The notes under the pieces: model-generated | What the model was told of the DNA's origin: nothing | Database searches by the model: none | The model's input: only the letters and a program-made list of their open reading frames with translations | Assembly: GCA_963727445.1 (NCBI GenBank) | Contig: CAVSGI010000013.1 | Coordinates: 288,001 to 352,000, forward strand | DNA length: 64,000 nt | Source: an uncultured delta proteobacterium | GTDB taxonomy: Bacteria; Myxococcota_A; Polyangia; Polyangiales; B10-G4 | Reading direction: 5' to 3' | In this document: one piece after another, positions 52,233-64,000 of the stretch | Numbering within the stretch: position 1 is the first letter of the stretch | Layout of the letters: every line of letters begins with the position of its first letter | Position numbers and translations under genes: made by a program

Positions 52233-53921
52233 ATGGCTTACTCCCTGACCATCGGGCTCCGCTATCTGCGCTCCAAGAAGCGATCGACGGTGTCCTTGAT
52301 CACCGTGATCGCCGTGGCCGGTGTCGCGCTCGGGGTGGGAGCGCTGCTCGCGGTGCTGAGCATCACCAGCGGTTTTCAGGACGCGTTTCGCGACAAGGTC
52401 CTGGGTGTCAACGCCCACGTCCTGGTGCTGAAGTACGGTCTCGACTTCGACGAGTACCGCGACGTCATCACCATGGCGGACGAGATGCCCGAGGTGGCCG
52501 GGGCCGCGCCCTTCGTCATCAACGAGATGATGTTGGCCAAGGGCGACCGCATCGGCGGCGTGCTGGTGAAGGGCGTGGACCCGGAGCTGATGCCGTCGGT
52601 GCTGGACCTGCCGAGTCAGATGGTGGCGGGTTCCCTCGACGGACTGCGGCGCCCCGACGCGCATCCGCCTCTGTCACCCGACGATCTCTCCGCCGGCGGC
52701 GATGCGATGGGCGAAGACCTCGACGACTACCTGCGCGGGCTCACCGGCGAGGGCGACGAGGAAGATGCGCCCGACGCGGGCGCGATGACCGAGGAGCAGA
52801 TGGAGGCGCTCCGGGATCGGATCGCGGAGACGGGCGGTGACGAGCCGCTGATCGTCGGCGACGAAGACGCGCCCGACGCGGCCGCGGAGTGGCAGCCCGT
52901 CTGGGAGACGGATCCCCAACTCGCGGGCGACGGCGAAGGCGACGAGATCGAGCCGCTCCCCGAGGTCGAGGTCCCCACCCTCGAGGAGATGCAGCAGGCG
53001 CTCTCCGAGCTGGACGAGGGCGAGGGGCTGCCCACGGACGACGCCGAGCGCGAGCTCTTCGAAGAGGAAGCCCGCGAGCGCGAGCAAGCCGAGGGTGTGG
53101 TCGATGCGCAGGACCTGCCCGGCGTGGTGGTCGGCAAGACGCTGGCCGCGAACCTCGGTCTCGAGATCGGCGACCGCGTGCGGGTCATCTCGCCCCTCGC
53201 CGGCCTCGACACGAGCCTCTGGGCGCCCAACGACCGCACGCCGCGCAGCCGCGAGTTCCGCGTCATCGGCGTCTTCGAAGCGGGCTTTCAGGAGTACGAC
53301 AGCCGCCTGATCTACGTGGACCTCTACGAGGCGCAGTCCTTCTTCGATCAGGGAGACACGGTCACCGGCGTCGAGATGCGCTTGAACGACATCGACGCGG
53401 CGCCCGAGATCGCACGCAAGATCGAACGCGAGCTCGGCGGCGGTCCCTTCCACACGATGGACTGGGAGGAGCTCAACCGAAACCTCTTCACCGCTCTCGA
53501 GATTCAGAAGGTGATGCTGAGCCTGGTCACCTCCGCGATCATGGTGGTGGCGGCGCTGGTGGTGATCGCGACGCTGATCATCCTGGTACTCGAAAAGAAG
53601 CGCGAGATCGCGATCCTCAAGGCGATGGGCGCGAAGGACTTCAGCGTCCTCGGCATCTTCATGGTGCAGGGTCTGGTGATCGGCGCCTTCGGTACGCTCA
53701 TCGGGCTCTTGTTGGGCGGCGGGGCCGTCGCCTATCTCGACCTCTACCAATTCCCGCTCGATCCGAAGGTGTATCTGATCGACCACCTCCCGGTGCGGAT
53801 CAGCTCGTGGGAGTTCGTGCTGACGACCGGTGTGGCCTTCGCCATCTGCCTTCTGGCGACGCTGATCCCGAGCTGGTGGGCGGCGCGCCTGTTGCCAGCC
53901 GACGGCGTCCGCTACGAGTAG
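52233..53921 (+). CDS. LolC/LolE-family ABC permease with a large acidic insertion
   Basis: IGLRYLRSKK..GVALGV..SGFQ; EKKREIAILKAMGA; VYLIDHLPV; C-terminal VRYE. Confidence 0.88.
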   Translation: MAYSLTIGLRYLRSKKRSTVSLITVIAVAGVALGVGALLAVLSITSGFQDAFRDKVLGVNAHVLVLKYGLDFDEYRDVITMADEMPEVAGAAPFVINEMMLAKGDRIGGVLVKGVDPELMPSVLDLPSQMVAGSLDGLRRPDAHPPLSPDDLSAGGDAMGEDLDDYLRGLTGEGDEEDAPDAGAMTEEQMEALRDRIAETGGDEPLIVGDEDAPDAAAEWQPVWETDPQLAGDGEGDEIEPLPEVEVPTLEEMQQALSELDEGEGLPTDDAERELFEEEAREREQAEGVVDAQDLPGVVVGKTLAANLGLEIGDRVRVISPLAGLDTSLWAPNDRTPRSREFRVIGVFEAGFQEYDSRLIYVDLYEAQSFFDQGDTVTGVEMRLNDIDAAPEIARKIERELGGGPFHTMDWEELNRNLFTALEIQKVMLSLVTSAIMVVAALVVIATLIILVLEKKREIAILKAMGAKDFSVLGIFMVQGLVIGAFGTLIGLLLGGGAVAYLDLYQFPLDPKVYLIDHLPVRISSWEFVLTTGVAFAICLLATLIPSWWAARLLPADGVRYE

Positions 53922-53963: not shown

Positions 53964-54305
53964 TTGAAGATCGTCATGTACGTCCTGGCCGTGTTGGTCG
54001 GCCTTCTCGGTTTGGTCTTCGTCGCGGGGAACCAGGGCGAGGTGCTGCGCATCGTGGTCGGCGCGGTGTTGATCGCCGCAGCGATCGCCATGGTGGTCGC
54101 GGCGCGCATGCGCCCGCAGGTCACACAGCGGAACATCGTCCAGCGCATCGACGTGGGCGGTGACGTCCGCCTCGAAGAGCTGAAGTGCCAGAAGTGCGGG
54201 GCGACGCTCTCGAAGGAGGCGGTGACGGTGCACGAGGGAGCTGTGATGGTCGCGTGCCCCTACTGCCAGGCCAGCTACCAGATGGAGGAGGCGCCGAAAT
54301 GGTGA
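53964..54305 (+). CDS. Small two-TM protein with C-terminal Zn ribbon
   Basis: Two hydrophobic helices; CQKC..CPYC; stop overlaps the next start. Confidence 0.75.
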   Translation: MKIVMYVLAVLVGLLGLVFVAGNQGEVLRIVVGAVLIAAAIAMVVAARMRPQVTQRNIVQRIDVGGDVRLEELKCQKCGATLSKEAVTVHEGAVMVACPYCQASYQMEEAPKW

Positions 54306-55897
54306 TGCTCTTTTCGAACGTGGCGCGCGCCATCCAGAAGGACGTGGGCGCCTTCTTCGGAGCGGTGCGCGGCGAAGACGAGGTCCCCATCCCGCGCGGG
54401 CTGAACACCTACCCGTTCACCGGAAATGGTGGGCAGACGCGGCTGCATCTCCGCGTTCAGGACGACGGAACCGGCCTGCTCTTTCGCGATGTCACCGACG
54501 TCATCCACCTGACCACCACCGCCACCGAGATGATCTGGATGGCCCTCGAGGGCTGGCCGCCGCGCCGGGCGCTCGGCGCGCTCTCGCGGCGCTACCGGGG
54601 CACGCGCGGGGACTTCGCGGCGGACTACGCGCGGATGCAGCGAGTGGTGCAGGTGTTGTCGACGCCCTCCGCCAGCTGTCACACCTGCGCCCTCGAGCTG
54701 CCGCAGGTGCCGCTCTTCAGCCAGCGCGCCCGCGCGCCGCACAAGGTCGACCTCGCGCTCACCTACGCCTGCAACAACCGCTGCCCGCACTGCTACAACG
54801 ACCCGGAGCGCTTCGACATGCGCGCGCTGCCGGTCGACGATTGGAAGCGCATCCTCGATCAGCTCGCGGAGGTCGGCGTCCCGCACGTGATCTTCACCGG
54901 CGGCGAAGCCACCGTCTACAAGGGCCTCGAAGAGCTCATCGCCCACGCCGACCAGGCGGGGATGATGACCGGGCTCAACTCCAACGGACGGCGCCTCCGC
55001 GATCGCGCGTACGTCGAACGGCTTCGCGACGCCGGCCTCGACCACGTGCAGATCACCCTCGAGAGCCACCACGCCGCGGTGCACGACGCCATGGTCGGCG
55101 CCCGCGCCTGGGAAGAATGCGTGGCCGGCGTGCGCGCCTGCGTCGAGACCGAGGGCCTCCACGTCATCACCAACACCACCATCACGCGCGTCAACGCCGC
55201 CGAGATCGGCGAGACGGTGGAGTTCCTGGGCGACCTGGGCCTGAGCACCTTCGCGATGAACGGGATGATCTACTCGGGCGGCGGCGACGCGAACCCCGAT
55301 GCCATCCCCCAGGACGCCCTGCCCTCGCTCCTGATCGAGGTCCGCGACACCGCCGAGGAGCGCGGGCTGCGGTTCCTCTGGTACACGGTCACCGAGTACT
55401 GCGAGATGAACCCGGTCGAGCTCGAGATCGGGGCCAAGCGCTGTAACGCAGGCGAGTACTCGATGTGCATCGAGCCGAACGGCGACGTGCTGCCCTGCCA
55501 GAGCTACTACATCTCCGCCGGGAACATGCTTCGAGATCCCTGGAGCGAGATCTGGCGCGGCGAGCTCTTCCGCTCCTTCCGCGACCGCGAGGACGATCCA
55601 GCGTGGGCGGGGCTCCCCGACAAGTGCCACACCTGCCCGGACCTGCCGCTCTGCGGCGGGGGCTGCCGCATCGAGCGCGAGTCTGCGGCGGGCGTGGCCC
55701 CGGGCGGCTGTCAGAGCTGCGCGAGCGGCGGACTCACGACGGGACGCGGGATCCGCTCGACAGGCGTCAGCGCCGCGAGCCACTGCACCTGCGGCGAAGG
55801 AGAGAGCGCCGGAGCCGGATGCGCGAGCGATGTGCACCGCGCACCGATGGGTCTCGTCACCCTGCGCATCCCGGAGCGGACGGAGGTCTCGCGATGA
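54299..55897 (+). CDS. Radical SAM/SPASM protein with N-terminal PqqD/RRE-like domain
   Basis: RBS GGAGGAG at 54284; CNNRCPHC, FTGGE, NSNG; SPASM CNAG..EPNGDVLPC..CHTCPDLPLCGGGC. Confidence 0.92.
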   Translation: MVMLFSNVARAIQKDVGAFFGAVRGEDEVPIPRGLNTYPFTGNGGQTRLHLRVQDDGTGLLFRDVTDVIHLTTTATEMIWMALEGWPPRRALGALSRRYRGTRGDFAADYARMQRVVQVLSTPSASCHTCALELPQVPLFSQRARAPHKVDLALTYACNNRCPHCYNDPERFDMRALPVDDWKRILDQLAEVGVPHVIFTGGEATVYKGLEELIAHADQAGMMTGLNSNGRRLRDRAYVERLRDAGLDHVQITLESHHAAVHDAMVGARAWEECVAGVRACVETEGLHVITNTTITRVNAAEIGETVEFLGDLGLSTFAMNGMIYSGGGDANPDAIPQDALPSLLIEVRDTAEERGLRFLWYTVTEYCEMNPVELEIGAKRCNAGEYSMCIEPNGDVLPCQSYYISAGNMLRDPWSEIWRGELFRSFRDREDDPAWAGLPDKCHTCPDLPLCGGGCRIERESAAGVAPGGCQSCASGGLTTGRGIRSTGVSAASHCTCGEGESAGAGCASDVHRAPMGLVTLRIPERTEVSR

Positions 55898-57126
55898 CCA
55901 GCCCCCTCACCCACTTCTCCCGCGAGCGCGACGGTCAGGTCGCGCGCTATCACCTGCGCGTCGATCCCGACGGCTCGGGGATCCTCCTCGCCAACGCTTC
56001 GGCCGCGCTTCGCCTCTCACAAACCGGCGTGATCATCGCCCGCGGGATCCTCGAAGGCGCGAGCCCCGGGCGCATCTCCAAGGACCTCGCGCGCAAGTTC
56101 GCGCACGTCGACCGATCGAAGGCGAGCCAGGACGTCGACCGCGTCGGCAAGGCGATCGACGACCTCGCCCGCCCGCGTGACGGGATCGCGCTGACCAGCC
56201 TCGACGACCCAGATGCCACGCTGCACCGGCGCGCGCTCTCGGCGCCGCTCTGCGCCGAGGTGGTCACGCCCTCGGCGGGTCGAGCGAAGGAGATCGTCCA
56301 CCGCCTCTGGGACATCGGCATTCCGCAGGTGCGCTTCGTGCTTCCCGTGGGCCACAACGCCGGCCATCTCGTTCACCTGGTAGAGGCGGCGGAGGACGTG
56401 GGGATGATCACCGGCGTGCGCGCGCGGGCGTCGGACCTGATGCCGGAGACCGTGGTCCGCGGCCTGGCCATGGCGGGGCTCGACCACCTCGACCTGCTCT
56501 GGAGCGGTGTCGACCCGCAGATGCACGAGGACCTCTTCGGCGAAGGGGACCTCGCGCATGCGGAGAGGCTCCTCGCGCTCTGTCACGACCTCGAGCTCTT
56601 CCCGATCGCCGTCATGCCGTTGCTCGGGGCGATCCTCGACGATCTCGACGACCTGGGTCGCGTCCTCGCGAAGCATCGCATCGAGGCGCTGGTGGCTTAT
56701 GCCATCACCGACGAGGACGGGCAGGGTCGCGCACTGTCGAGCATCGAGCTCCCACAGGTGGCGACCAGCCTCGAAGAGGTGGCCGAGCACGGCAACATCA
56801 ACCTCGTATGGGCGGCGCCGGAAGAGCGCGACCCGTCGATCACGCTGGTGGAGCAGGTCGCGGCCGGACCGCGCGCCGCGGGCGAGGCCTGCATCCGCAT
56901 CGAGGCCGACGGGCGGGTGATCGCGCCCAACGGGCCGGCGACGATGGCGGGCAACCTCTTCGACGATCCCTGGGAAAAGATCTGGCAGGCCCCGATCTTC
57001 CACCACTGGCGCACGTCGGTGGACGATCCGCCGCGGTGCACGATGTGCCCGGGGCTCGCCCTCTGCGCCGCCGGCTGCCCGAAAGACCGCGCGACCTGGG
57101 CCACCCTTTCTGGAGGTGAGAAGTGA
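55894..57126 (+). CDS. Degenerate radical-SAM-like paralog (RRE-like + TIM-like + partial SPASM; no CxxxCxxC)
   Basis: ATGA overlap; HLRVDPDGSGIL matches HLRVQDDGTGLL of the neighbour; ends CTMCPGLALCAAGCP. Confidence 0.8.
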   Translation: MTSPLTHFSRERDGQVARYHLRVDPDGSGILLANASAALRLSQTGVIIARGILEGASPGRISKDLARKFAHVDRSKASQDVDRVGKAIDDLARPRDGIALTSLDDPDATLHRRALSAPLCAEVVTPSAGRAKEIVHRLWDIGIPQVRFVLPVGHNAGHLVHLVEAAEDVGMITGVRARASDLMPETVVRGLAMAGLDHLDLLWSGVDPQMHEDLFGEGDLAHAERLLALCHDLELFPIAVMPLLGAILDDLDDLGRVLAKHRIEALVAYAITDEDGQGRALSSIELPQVATSLEEVAEHGNINLVWAAPEERDPSITLVEQVAAGPRAAGEACIRIEADGRVIAPNGPATMAGNLFDDPWEKIWQAPIFHHWRTSVDDPPRCTMCPGLALCAAGCPKDRATWATLSGGEK

Positions 57127-58991
57127 TGCGCCGCCTCTCGACTTGGGCCGCCCTCACGGCCGCGACGATCGTGCTCCTCTTCCCGGCGCTGGCGACGGCT
57201 CCTGCCGCTGCGCAGACCTATGCGTTCTCCGTCCCGCAGGTGACGATGGAGTGCAGGGTCAACACCGACGCCTCGGTGCGCATCCACTACATCATCGAGT
57301 TCGAGAACAGCTCCTACGGCTCGCCCATCGACGTGGTCGACGTGGGGCTTCCCCACGACGATTACCGAATCTCGAACATGCGGGCGTCCCTCGACGGCGT
57401 GGAGACGCACGCCATCGCACCCTCCACCTACATCGACACCGGCGTCGAAGTGCACATCGGCGCCGGGATCCCGGCCGGGGCCCGCGGCGTCTTCGAGTTC
57501 ACGACGACCATGCCGGATCTCGTATTCTCGGACACGACCGACGATGCGCTGGCGTCGATACGCATCACGCCCACCTGGTTCGATGGAGCCCTCGTCACCG
57601 GCGACACCGATCTGCGCATCGCCATCGAGCTGCCGCCGGGCGTGAACGCCGAAGAGGTCCTGAATCAGGGCACGCCGTTCTACAACAAGGCCGACCTCGA
57701 CGATCACGCGCTTGTCGGCTTCCGCTTCGAGCACACGCGCTTCACCGAGGCGCACATGGTCGGCATCTCCTTCCCGCGCCGAGTGATGAGCCGCGTGGTG
57801 GAGATCACCAAGTGGGACCTCCTCGTGAAGTGGTGGGAAGACAACCCGAAGGTCCGCGTCATCGCCGGCATCCTGATGCTGCTGGTGTCGCTCCTCTTCT
57901 TCATGCGCTTCACCGGCTTCACCGGCTGGTCGGTCTTCATCTTCCTCGCAGGCGTGGTGGGGGTGCTCTGCTACTTCGCGCCGTTGGTGCAGCTGGTTCT
58001 GATCCCGGTCATCCCGGTGGTCGGCGCGCTCCTCGAATGGCGCACGCAGCGGAGAAAACGGACGTACCTGCCGCCCATCGCCTCGGTGGAAGGCGGCGGG
58101 ATCAAGCGCGGGCTCACCGCGCCCGAGGCCGCGGTGCTCCTCGAGCTGCCCCTGGGCCGGGTGCTGACGCTGGTCGTCTTCGGGATGCTGCGGAAGCGCC
58201 TGTTGATCCAGCAGAACCTCAAGCCGCTCACCGTGAGCATCGTCCCTGCCATCGCCCAGGCCAAGAAGCACAAGGCGCGGCGGCGGGCGGCGGCTCAGGC
58301 CGGGCTGGTGATCCACGCCTATGAGCACGCCTTCCTCGACGCCATCGACGACAGCCGCGGCCTCTCGGTGAACGAGGTCGACTTCGGCGCGGCGATGAAG
58401 AAGCTCGTCGAGCACGTCGCGGAGCGCGTGCTCGGCTTCGACGTGGACCAGACGAAGAAGTACTACCGGTATCAGATCCAGCGCGCGTGGACCGAGGCCG
58501 AGGCCATCGGCGAGCTAGACATGCGCACCAAGAAGGTCGACGAGAAGCTCGAGTGGTTGCTCATGGACGACGACTACGACGACCGCTTCTCGAGTTGGGG
58601 GACGGGCGGCTACTGGTACCGGCCCACCTGGGGCTACGTCCACACGGGCGGCGGCGTCGATCTCGGCAGCGTCGCCGACGCAGCGGCGTCCGCCGGCGGG
58701 GGCGCCATCGACCACACGCAGACGAGCTTCGGCGACGTGGCGGCGGGCTTCGCCGGGTGGACCGAGCGCGTCACCGGCCAGCTCTCGAACGCCATCCGGC
58801 CGGGCGACGTGAACGCGGCGGCCGCCGGCGGCGTCATCGATCTCTCCGGCGCCGACAAGGTGACGGGCGAGGTCCTCGAAGCCTTCTTCTCCAACAGCGG
58901 CGGCGGTGGCGGAGGTGGCGGCGGCGGGGGCTGCGCGTGCGCCTGCGCCGGCTGCGCGTGCGCGTGCGCCTGTGCCGGCGGCGGCCGATGA
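57123..58991 (+). CDS. DUF2207-like membrane protein with C-terminal Gly10-(Cys-Ala)n tail
   Basis: Signal peptide; VNTDASVRIHYIIEFEN N-domain; three TM helices; LTAPEAAVLL; ends GGGGGGGGGGCACACAGCACACACAGGGR. Confidence 0.8.
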   Translation: MMRRLSTWAALTAATIVLLFPALATAPAAAQTYAFSVPQVTMECRVNTDASVRIHYIIEFENSSYGSPIDVVDVGLPHDDYRISNMRASLDGVETHAIAPSTYIDTGVEVHIGAGIPAGARGVFEFTTTMPDLVFSDTTDDALASIRITPTWFDGALVTGDTDLRIAIELPPGVNAEEVLNQGTPFYNKADLDDHALVGFRFEHTRFTEAHMVGISFPRRVMSRVVEITKWDLLVKWWEDNPKVRVIAGILMLLVSLLFFMRFTGFTGWSVFIFLAGVVGVLCYFAPLVQLVLIPVIPVVGALLEWRTQRRKRTYLPPIASVEGGGIKRGLTAPEAAVLLELPLGRVLTLVVFGMLRKRLLIQQNLKPLTVSIVPAIAQAKKHKARRRAAAQAGLVIHAYEHAFLDAIDDSRGLSVNEVDFGAAMKKLVEHVAERVLGFDVDQTKKYYRYQIQRAWTEAEAIGELDMRTKKVDEKLEWLLMDDDYDDRFSSWGTGGYWYRPTWGYVHTGGGVDLGSVADAAASAGGGAIDHTQTSFGDVAAGFAGWTERVTGQLSNAIRPGDVNAAAAGGVIDLSGADKVTGEVLEAFFSNSGGGGGGGGGGGCACACAGCACACACAGGGR

Positions 58992-59055: not shown

Positions 59056-59814
59056 ATGGCCGATATGAGCGAAGGCGCGCCGCCCAGCATCCCGCCAGAG
59101 TCGGTCCTTCGCGCCCAGGACGCGCTGATCGCGCCGATGCGCTCGCGCATCCTGCGGCGCATCGGCATCGGCCACCGCGGGCCCGTCCTCGACCTCGGCG
59201 CGGGGCCGGGGGTGGTGAGCGCGGAGCTGTTGCGGCGGAGCCGCGGTCCGGTGGTCGCCCTCGATCGCGATCCCATCGTGAAGAAGGCGCCCGCCGACGA
59301 GCGCGTCGTCGCCGACGCGACCGCCCTGCCCTTCGCCTCGGGCCGCTTCGCGCTCGTCTACGCGCAGTTCGTCTTTCTCTGGAACGACGCGGCGGCGCGA
59401 CGCCGCATCGCCGAGGAGATCGCTCGGGTGCTCTCACCGGACGGCGTGGTGGTGATCGTCGAGCCGGACTATCACGCCGCCATCGAGCACCCCCCCACCA
59501 TCGCCATCGCCCCGACCGCCGCCGCCGCCATCGCACGCGCGGGTGGGGTGCCCGACGTCGCCCGGCGCCTGCCGGCGGAGCTCTGTGAGGCGGGCCTGAC
59601 GGTGCGCATCGAGCAGAGCCCGGAGCTCGTCCCGCCCAATCCCGCGCGCTTCGCCGCGCTCGAAGGATTGCCGCTCACCGCCGAGGAGCAGGCGCGCATC
59701 GCGCAGGCGAAGAACGCTGACGCCGCGCTTCGCCCCGACGCCCGCTTCGCTCACGTACCGCTCTTCTTCTTCACTGCCGAGTCTGGGGCCTCGGGTCGAC
59801 GACGCGGCCCATGA
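59056..59814 (+). CDS. Class I SAM-dependent methyltransferase
   Basis: VLDLGAGPG, ADATALPF, RVLSPDG..VEPD. Confidence 0.85.
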   Translation: MADMSEGAPPSIPPESVLRAQDALIAPMRSRILRRIGIGHRGPVLDLGAGPGVVSAELLRRSRGPVVALDRDPIVKKAPADERVVADATALPFASGRFALVYAQFVFLWNDAAARRRIAEEIARVLSPDGVVVIVEPDYHAAIEHPPTIAIAPTAAAAIARAGGVPDVARRLPAELCEAGLTVRIEQSPELVPPNPARFAALEGLPLTAEEQARIAQAKNADAALRPDARFAHVPLFFFTAESGASGRRRGP

Positions 59815-63320: not shown

Positions 63321-63395
<75 letters not shown>

Positions 63396-64000
63396 CGAGA
63401 CTTCGCTTAGAGGGGTAGTGATTTCGGCTGGTTGGCGATTCGTCGACCGGCCGAAGTCGTATCTGGGATTTGAGCGTCGAGCCACGTTGACTATCCGGAT
63501 GACTATTTCGTCCGGGGACCGTGCGCCGAGGCGGGGAAGAGCAGCGCCGCGACTTGGTCGCCCGCCTGCCTCGCCTCGTCCGGGAGCAGCGTCGAGTAAT
63601 GCTCCCGCATCCTGTCGGTTGCGTGCCCCACGAGGGACTTCGCGACCACTGGATCCACCTTCGCGCGCCTCAGAAGGTCGGTCATCGACCGCCTGAGCCC
63701 GTGCGAGGTGATGCGCTGCGTGATGCCCGCGCGAGCGCGGGCGGCGGCGAGCGCATCCGAGATACGCGCCGAGCCGAGGGGCGTCCCGACCCTGGATGGG
63801 AACATCAGCCCGCTCGACAAGCCGGGATGCTGCTCGCGAACGAGCCGCGCCCGATGCTCGCGGAGGAGCTCGAGCAGCACGCCCGGCACGCCGACCCATC
63901 GCGCCTTACCCGACTTCGTCGACGGCACGAGCTCGCCCTTCACCACCTTGCGGCGGACCCAGAGCACCCGCTCCTCCTCGACGAGGTCCGCGAACATCAA
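63396..64000. mobile_element. Left end of a tRNA-Gly-integrated element (prophage, ICE or island)
   Basis: Integrase ends about 107 nt downstream of the tRNA CCA. Confidence 0.65.
63503..64000 (-). CDS. Tyrosine recombinase/integrase (C-terminal part)
   Basis: TKSG, HGLRR, LVGH, HY catalytic residues; converges on the tRNA 3' end. Confidence 0.9.
   Translation of the reverse strand: MMFADLVEEERVLWVRRKVVKGELVPSTKSGKARWVGVPGVLLELLREHRARLVREQHPGLSSGLMFPSRVGTPLGSARISDALAAARARAGITQRITSHGLRRSMTDLLRRAKVDPVVAKSLVGHATDRMREHYSTLLPDEARQAGDQVAALLFPASAHGPRTK

Follow-up and report, generated by a model that had tools for sequence, protein, structure and literature searches.

A radical SAM paralogue without its catalytic cluster, encoded between an active-type enzyme and a membrane protein with a conserved Cys-Ala tail

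This study concerns a gene for a 410-residue protein in the genome of an uncultured delta proteobacterium (B10-G4, assembly GCA_963727445.1), found in a stretch of 64,000 nucleotides (contig CAVSGI010000013.1, positions 288,001 to 352,000 of the forward strand) to which we refer as the window. The protein has the fold of a radical S-adenosylmethionine (SAM) enzyme; it lacks the CX3CX2C motif of the SAM-cleaving cluster. That it is a real, selected, cluster-less paralogue of the active-type enzyme encoded just upstream is as good as certain. Its role can be proposed with less assurance: it probably serves as a non-catalytic helper subunit of that enzyme, which would act on a tail rich in cysteine and alanine (the Cys-Ala tail) at the end of a membrane protein encoded just downstream. 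A first-pass annotation, made from the letters of the window alone, had already drawn attention to the gene as the partner of the upstream enzyme. The gene belongs to an unannotated five-gene set, and the tail, absent from that annotation, is named here as the probable substrate.

A paralogue that lacks the SAM-cluster loop

The two paralogues align end to end (BLASTP, 23% identity over 442 columns, E 1e-24) and are collinear from an N-terminal HLRV-DG-G motif through to their last cysteines. At the site of the enzyme's APHKVDLALTYACNNRCPHC the cluster-less protein reads APLCAEVVTPS. P118 and P144, the conserved prolines to either side of the cluster loop, stand 26 residues apart in 108 of the 115 homologues aligned and 26 to 29 in all 115, whereas the equivalent prolines are 48 residues apart in 119 of 119 active enzymes; the SAM-cluster motif has therefore been lost by a clean deletion of 22 residues. 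The GGE motif is missing as well, QVRFVLP standing where the enzyme reads HVIFTGGE. Three cysteines of the enzyme's first auxiliary site, C382, C390 and C400, correspond in the cluster-less family to R327 (115/115), R335 (113/115) and P or A345. What has been kept is the set C382, C385, C391 and C395 of the cluster-less protein, which lies in its best-conserved region: each alignment column is cysteine in 95-98% of the family, and the exact spacing CX2CX5CX3C recurs in 111 of 120 homologues listed. On each of these points, namely collinearity, the substituted segment, the loss of both the cluster motif and GGE, and the survival of only the last CxxCx5Cx3C ligands of the SPASM domain, the alignment agrees with the first-pass annotation.

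The active enzyme carries further invariant cysteines of its own, a CxxC between the recognition domain and the barrel (C127, C130) and C368, together with a cysteine-rich C-terminal extension in which C471xxC474 is present in at least 90% of sequences. These extra cysteines are likewise lost from the dead partner.

Profile scans for Radical_SAM, SPASM and PqqD had been suggested by the annotation. In a Pfam scan, the cluster-less protein has no match to PF04055 (Radical SAM) at E<=0.1, and its SPASM scores lie below the cut-offs (PF13186, 17.9 against 21.5; TIGR04085, 24.6 against 27); a standard SPASM domain has seven or eight cysteines for two auxiliary clusters, of which this protein falls short. 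The HLRV-DG-G region is predicted to be a RiPP (ribosomally made, post-translationally modified peptide) recognition element (RRE), or PqqD-like domain. Its match to PF05402 is sub-threshold (E 0.008, score 16.9 against 23.4), as is that to NF033530 (E 9e-5), which is also matched weakly by 28 of 115 family members, and the modelled N-terminus, with three strands and three helices, fits the RRE topology. The structure model as a whole has a predicted local distance difference test (pLDDT) score of 89.6 and a predicted template-modelling (pTM) score of 0.90, and its nearest solved folds in a Foldseek search are SuiB (E 4e-12), SkfB and CteB. This confident model comprises a partial TIM barrel that is preceded by the predicted RRE and followed by a reduced SPASM domain. 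A search of the ESM Atlas returned only the family's own unnamed cluster and generic radical SAM/SPASM clusters.

The reading frame itself is unremarkable. It starts with ATG, ends with TGA and has zero internal stops, and codon bias is normal, with a third-position GC content (GC3) of 0.89 against 0.91-0.93 for the neighbours. Four-base overlaps couple it to the enzyme gene at the 5' end (ATGA, 55894-55897) and to the membrane-protein gene at the 3' end (GTGA, 57123-57126). A longer open frame beginning at GTG 55465 was considered and rejected, most homologues beginning to align at about ATG 55894.

A protein search gave 125 matches at E<=0.001, and CX3CX2C is present in none of the 120 homologues listed. 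A profile search of a library clustered at 50% identity gave 150 rows, 81 of them at least 380 amino acids (aa) long. The profile of the cluster-less family was favoured over that of the enzyme by 59 of these 81, and none of the 59 representatives has CX3CX2C at the usual place. Ratios of non-synonymous to synonymous substitution (dN/dS) were estimated pairwise by the Nei-Gojobori method for 81 gene copies (two identical); of 94 pairs with at least 66% identity, 67 had a usable dS, and these pairs are non-independent. Their median is 0.158 (range 0.08-0.48), while the enzyme's is 0.249 and the membrane protein's 0.196; the gene of the window gives 0.30 against its nearest locus. In two trees the family is a single clade (30 rows, SH-aLRT support 100; 9 rows, 100/100), in the latter borne on a long stem branch of 1.3 changes per site. 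The cluster-less family is one old clade under long-term selection.

A recent duplicate in decay would account for the loss of the catalytic motif, and for nothing else. Every one of the listed homologues lacks the motif, each usable pair lies far below a dN/dS of 1, the clade is fully supported, the frame is intact and codon bias is normal; the probability left to decay is negligible, and we reject it on the motif count, dN/dS and the one-clade tree. The first-pass annotation had likewise judged the frame to be intact, coupled on both sides and no decaying pseudogene, and had proposed that orthologues be examined for retention of CxxxCxxC and for dN/dS. Orthologues prove to be consistently without the motif and under constraint, and its judgement stands.

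The five-gene set and its Cys-Ala tail

The usual gene order, also found in the window, is zinc ribbon, active enzyme, cluster-less gene, large membrane protein and methyltransferase (Table 1). From 144 matching genome stretches, 80 loci were kept. The enzyme is present in 64 of these (directly adjacent in 48), the membrane protein in 76, and the zinc ribbon and the methyltransferase in 56 each, many of the missing genes being due to contig ends. For the 16 loci without an enzyme, 15 genomes were searched and all 15 encode it elsewhere (610-870 bits). Counted over whole genomes, 79 of 80 (one unsearched) encode the cognate enzyme and 80 of 80 the tail protein, the genomes of all four loci without a membrane protein encoding one elsewhere. 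When the operon is split, the cluster-less gene usually stays by the membrane protein, while the zinc ribbon goes with the enzyme: the DNA around ten split-off enzymes was inspected, and a zinc-ribbon gene adjoins nine, the tenth being cut at the contig start.

Table 1. Features of the five-gene set (window positions).
Feature	Position	Strand	Description and basis
Cluster-less radical-SAM-fold protein	55894..57126	+	410 aa; predicted RRE, then a partial TIM barrel lacking both CX3CX2C and GGE, then a reduced SPASM domain
Predicted RRE/PqqD-like domain, residues about 15-92	55936..56169	+	Weak profile matches, modelled secondary structure and conservation; conserved RxHLRVDPDGxGLLLANA
Strand 1-strand 2 segment, P118-P144	56245..56325	+	Site of the 22-residue deletion of the SAM-cluster loop, from spacing comparison
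CX2CX5CX3C (C382, C385, C391, C395)	57037..57078	+	Sole strongly conserved cysteines; predicted single metal site
Membrane protein, candidate substrate	57123..58991	+	622 aa; model, hydropathy, fold search
C-terminal tail CACACAGCACACACAGGGR	58932..58988	+	19 residues, seven cysteines; almost invariant; probable modified core
Zinc-ribbon protein	53964..54305	+	113 aa; two predicted transmembrane helices; CxxC...CxxC, both pairs in 56/56 homologues
Active-type RRE-radical SAM/SPASM enzyme	54299..55897	+	532 aa; scores above cut-off for PF04055 (E 4e-26) and PF13186 (E 2e-12); invariant cysteines
Class I SAM-dependent methyltransferase	59056..59814	+	Last of the set; PF08241 E 1.5e-12; start codon uncertain

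The upstream enzyme has CX3CX2C (54770-54793), GGE and the full SPASM cysteine set, features that make it the probable catalytic partner of the cluster-less protein; its best NCBIfam score, under the cut-off, is to PqqE. Five genomes gave a third match of about 270 bits, in each case to a separate active radical SAM enzyme. At about this score on the enzyme profile, a related family of active RRE-radical SAM/SPASM enzymes lies elsewhere in several genomes (L108, L109, L110, L116, L117), with neither tail protein nor partner in the fetched flanks. A gene of about 230 aa, of one family, often lies between enzyme and partner (L014, L032, L049, L056, L060, L077, L078, L079), sometimes accompanied by a gene that reads like a Ser/Thr kinase.

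Named records of the cluster-less family come from Chloroflexota (mostly Anaerolineae), Armatimonadota, bins labelled Deltaproteobacteria, Planctomycetota and Sumerlaeota. Its spread is patchy: a cognate enzyme scoring above 500 bits occurs in 3 of 301 sampled genomes of the source genome's phylum, and the tail protein in 45 of 301 sampled Anaerolineae-class genomes.

The membrane protein matched no NCBIfam family, and none of the 57 aligned members of its family matched a Pfam family at E<=0.01. Its predicted layout comprises a signal peptide, an extracellular beta-sandwich, three transmembrane helices, a basic stretch and a cytoplasmic helical domain, followed by a predicted disordered end in which a Gly/Ser linker leads to the Cys-Ala tail. 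In a fold search with the model, the beta-sandwich resembled domains found at the N-termini of M1 aminopeptidases and of ribophorin I. This topology would place the tail in the cytoplasm, where the enzyme would be. Among 73 tail-bearing open reading frames (ORFs) across the 80 loci, 71 terminate in CACAGCACACACAGGGR, despite an identity of only about 45% over the whole protein; the source genome has a single copy of the gene. By established RiPP logic, a SPASM enzyme with an RRE and, next to it, an invariant terminus rich in cysteine would be a maturase and the core peptide on which it acts. Sactipeptide and ranthipeptide systems have a short ribosomal precursor with thioether cross-links; the conserved cysteine-rich element here forms the end of a membrane protein of 600 aa, no systematic search for a small precursor having been made.

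Eight Anaerolineae loci (L014, L017, L032, L056, L060, L077, L078, L079) have the standard tail protein paired in tandem with a second one that is shorter and divergent; the tail of both is the same.

A probable helper subunit and the alternatives to it

The reading that we favour, from gene context and sequence, makes the cluster-less protein a non-catalytic helper of the upstream enzyme. It is likely to be one subunit of a heterodimer, as suggested by the co-occurrence of the two genes, by one natural fusion and by the precedent of TrnC and TrnD considered below. The fusion (P0162) is 901 aa long, its enzyme part occupying residues about 1-460 and its partner part 494-897. An Armatimonadota cluster of 26 members, 15 of them listed, yields six distinct 901-aa sequences and also contains split forms of 467 and 433 aa. 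A search for homologues of greater length came back empty from 8000 crowded candidates; since even the known fusion escaped it, it is uninformative about the frequency of fusions.

In the mechanism proposed, the two paralogues would bind 1:1 as an asymmetric dimer. The RRE and empty barrel of the partner would grip the substrate, probably at conserved segments just upstream of the tail, and would hold the seven-cysteine tail in such a way that the active subunit could process several sites. Only the upstream enzyme would make the 5'-deoxyadenosyl radical, and the most likely products would be cysteine thioether cross-links. The four kept cysteines would bind one metal centre, either an auxiliary-II-like Fe-S cluster or zinc, which could be structural or could assist the return of electrons. 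The ancestor is likely to have been a homodimer in which one subunit worked; such an origin would account for the repeated rise of dead copies and for the operons that lack one.

Two samples selected by the tail reveal how variable the partner is. The first consists of 38 Anaerolineae-class stretches from the 45 genomes with a match: this partner is present in five, a different dead copy that keeps GGE and has 1-4 cysteines in seven, no enzyme lies within six and one is unclear. The second draws on metagenome contigs at least 6 kb long: it covers 46 of 78 loci, on 43 contigs, three of which are represented twice. Seven contigs have this partner and 22 the cysteine-free type, in three a methyltransferase directly follows the enzyme, and 29 have some cluster-less paralogue no more than 6 kb from the tail. 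The alternative dead copy, which has 0-5 cysteines and lacks the auxiliary motif, follows the enzyme in the same kind of operon. Three natural configurations thus exist: with this partner, with a cysteine-free partner and with no partner. A tree forcing all 18 cluster-less rows into one clade was rejected by the approximately unbiased test (p-AU 9.5e-6), and with it a single origin of all dead copies, on a grouping that was named after the first trees were seen, that includes long branches and that has four members (P0343, P0355, P0375, P0386) whose context is not shown. When metagenomes were scanned for the gene context of P0355, a divergent copy of the cysteine-free kind, no relative was found. 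The cluster-less clade and the bacterial cysteine-free copies are joined with a support of 87 in one tree, separate in another and in a polytomy in a third.

The register of the tail also varies with operon type (L149-L188, L218-L295), its last block having four cysteines with this partner (exception L151) and three with the others. Both register and operon type track lineage and are non-independent evidence.

Could the partner's main job be to relay electrons, its CX2CX5CX3C cluster feeding the SAM cluster of the enzyme, in the way proposed for Dph2 of Dph1-Dph2 and for PapB's second auxiliary cluster? The place of the four cysteines in the best-conserved region would suit such a role, as would the small CxxC...CxxC protein encoded in the operon. 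In the parts of the sources available, PapB depends on electron transfer between molecules, for which its second auxiliary cluster is the likely route (PMC10470005), and the cluster of Dph2 is described as regulatory and as required for activation by the electron carrier Dph3 (PMC11048331). The four cysteines could bind zinc, however, conservation extends beyond the cluster to the entire RRE and barrel, and the alternative dead copy serves the same kind of operon with no auxiliary motif at all; we regard the relay as a distinctly improbable main function. Of the two roles, holding the substrate is preferred to relaying electrons, since the dead copy of related operons has no auxiliary cysteines, or there is no dead copy; this argues that the role shared by the dead copies would be to hold the substrate or the dimer and not to carry electrons. 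The first-pass annotation had offered a heterodimer subunit for substrate binding or electron relay, rather than a pseudogene. The last point is firm and the heterodimer likely; between the two functions, which it had left side by side, the relay now takes second place.

The behaviour of split operons, in which the cluster-less gene travels with the tail protein rather than the enzyme, raises a different idea: a free-standing reader, chaperone or regulator that binds the tail, or a leader-like segment, before or after modification and forms no stable dimer. A 948-aa record in which the first 338 residues of the partner are joined to the tail protein points the same way, although it may be a frameshift or deletion artefact; both this record and locus L046 were set aside as possible frameshifts. 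Set against it are the natural fusion of enzyme and partner, the TrnC/TrnD precedent and the position of the other dead copy, which follows the enzyme in its own operons. On balance, we consider a free-standing reader unlikely.

Near-invariant residues specific to the family (R176, R327, R335 and W139) occupy former cluster-ligand and barrel positions, and, together with the long stem branch, they could betray a repurposed non-radical enzyme that acts on the tail after the radical step, for example by addition, hydrolysis or metal loading. Yet no known non-radical catalytic motif was recognised in the protein, and the tail is very similar, and the accessory genes unchanged, in operons that have the other dead copy or lack one. 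We accordingly give this alternative little credence.

Several observations weigh against the helper subunit that we prefer. What identifies the Cys-Ala tail as the probable substrate is confined to gene context and conservation. The only obvious non-cysteine acceptors in the tail are Ala and Gly, so the chemistry may not be thioether formation. The fusion goes back to a single recent event, confined to one species-level cluster that includes split forms; it speaks of tolerance more than of necessity and lends modest support. In 19 of the 38 Anaerolineae-class stretches the enzyme is present with no partner in view, several of these stretches being cut by contig ends, and no cluster-less paralogue was found in any of ten partner-less genomes searched whole (completeness not given). 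Since the system occurs without a detectable dead copy, the partner is not universally required.

A broader proposal can be advanced only tentatively, as it may well not hold. It would make these systems half-active-dimer maturases, in which a dead subunit evolved repeatedly and independently and whose target is an invariant, RiPP-like Cys-Ala core that remains part of an integral membrane protein. This would be an undescribed multi-site post-translational modification in many uncultured anaerobic lineages.

Relation to known systems and neighbouring genes

Two curated families, TIGR04347 and TIGR04304, are what we take to be radical SAM/SPASM-like proteins with no normal SAM-cluster motif, encoded beside an active paralogue, presumably in haloarchaeal contexts for the former and in a Geobacter peptide system for the latter. 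The cluster-less protein is a member of neither. TIGR04347 (pseudo-SAM/SPASM) is its best weak match, at 26.8 bits against a cut-off of 525; TIGR04304 (GeoRSP SPASM) does not match it at E<=0.01, and 23 of 115 family members match weakly (best E 2e-5). Pseudo-enzyme partners of radical SAM enzymes thus have curated families and, in the literature searched, apparently no experimental explanation, the nearest tested case, TrnD, being one that cleaves SAM. The domain order of the cluster-less protein is that of SuiB, SkfB, CteB and PqqE, with which it shares 12-15% identity; those enzymes carry the SAM cluster and act on short peptides.

The closest parallel comes from thuricin CD. As described in the available part of the source, TrnC and TrnD form a 1:1 complex, and in TrnD the SAM cluster is removable with little loss, the RRE is required and the auxiliary motif is only CX2CX5C (PMC12093266). 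Like the present pair, TrnC and TrnD appear from that part to be two RRE-radical SAM/SPASM paralogues of one cluster with a multi-cysteine substrate, and the cluster-less protein is likewise encoded with an active paralogue of this type and a multi-cysteine candidate substrate. TrnD, on the same account, retains CX3CX2C and cleaves SAM, whereas the loop is deleted here, and TrnA and TrnB are short secreted peptides, whereas the probable core here is the C-terminus of a 600-aa membrane protein; the likeness to TrnD is one of description. The cluster-less protein looks like the end point of the path on which TrnD would lie, with the loop deleted outright.

According to the accessible part of another report, CrpC of Methanococcus voltae is a SPASM enzyme that cross-links cysteines in a 29-kDa protein and therefore provides a precedent for a protein-sized substrate (PMC13692751). 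Insofar as this source covers them, CrpC/CrpA and QhpD/QhpC resemble the present system in that an RRE-bearing SPASM enzyme forms thioether links in a cysteine-rich protein and not in a small peptide, and differ from it in substrate motifs. The main text, as available, mentions neither a membrane protein nor a pseudo-enzyme, and ACAGGGR is absent from three supplementary files. For asymmetry, Dph1-Dph2 offers an analogy only: the part of the source available describes an archaeal homodimer whose eukaryotic counterpart is an asymmetric heterodimer, one cluster being catalytic and the other regulatory, with a small iron-binding carrier, Dph3; the fold is unrelated and non-canonical, and both subunits have the cluster motif (PMC11048331).

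Literature searches, whose coverage left out most subscription papers, found no published description of this system. The tail letters retrieved only subjects unrelated by title, terms for pseudo-radical SAM proteins and for DUF2207/Anaerolineae retrieved nothing, and the available parts of PMC12452194 and PMC8939145 hold nothing on it. In the cluster-less family the catalytic loop has been cleanly knocked out by nature and the protein maintained over a very long time, accompanied by a candidate substrate of 19 residues. Its three configurations make testable the role of a second SPASM subunit and of the auxiliary clusters, as well as RiPP-type chemistry on integral membrane proteins, and a functional hypothesis is gained for an operon whose candidate substrate has no Pfam or NCBIfam family.

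Elsewhere in the window, just upstream of the set on the same strand (52233-53921), lies a gene that by eye resembles a LolC/E-like ABC permease with a long acidic insertion. At the other end, a tRNA-Gly(GCC) gene (63321-63395) adjoins the C-terminal part of an ORF on the minus strand (63503-64000). This ORF resembles a tyrosine recombinase in its HGLRR...GH...Y pattern, and the end of the window (63321-64000) is probably an integration site.

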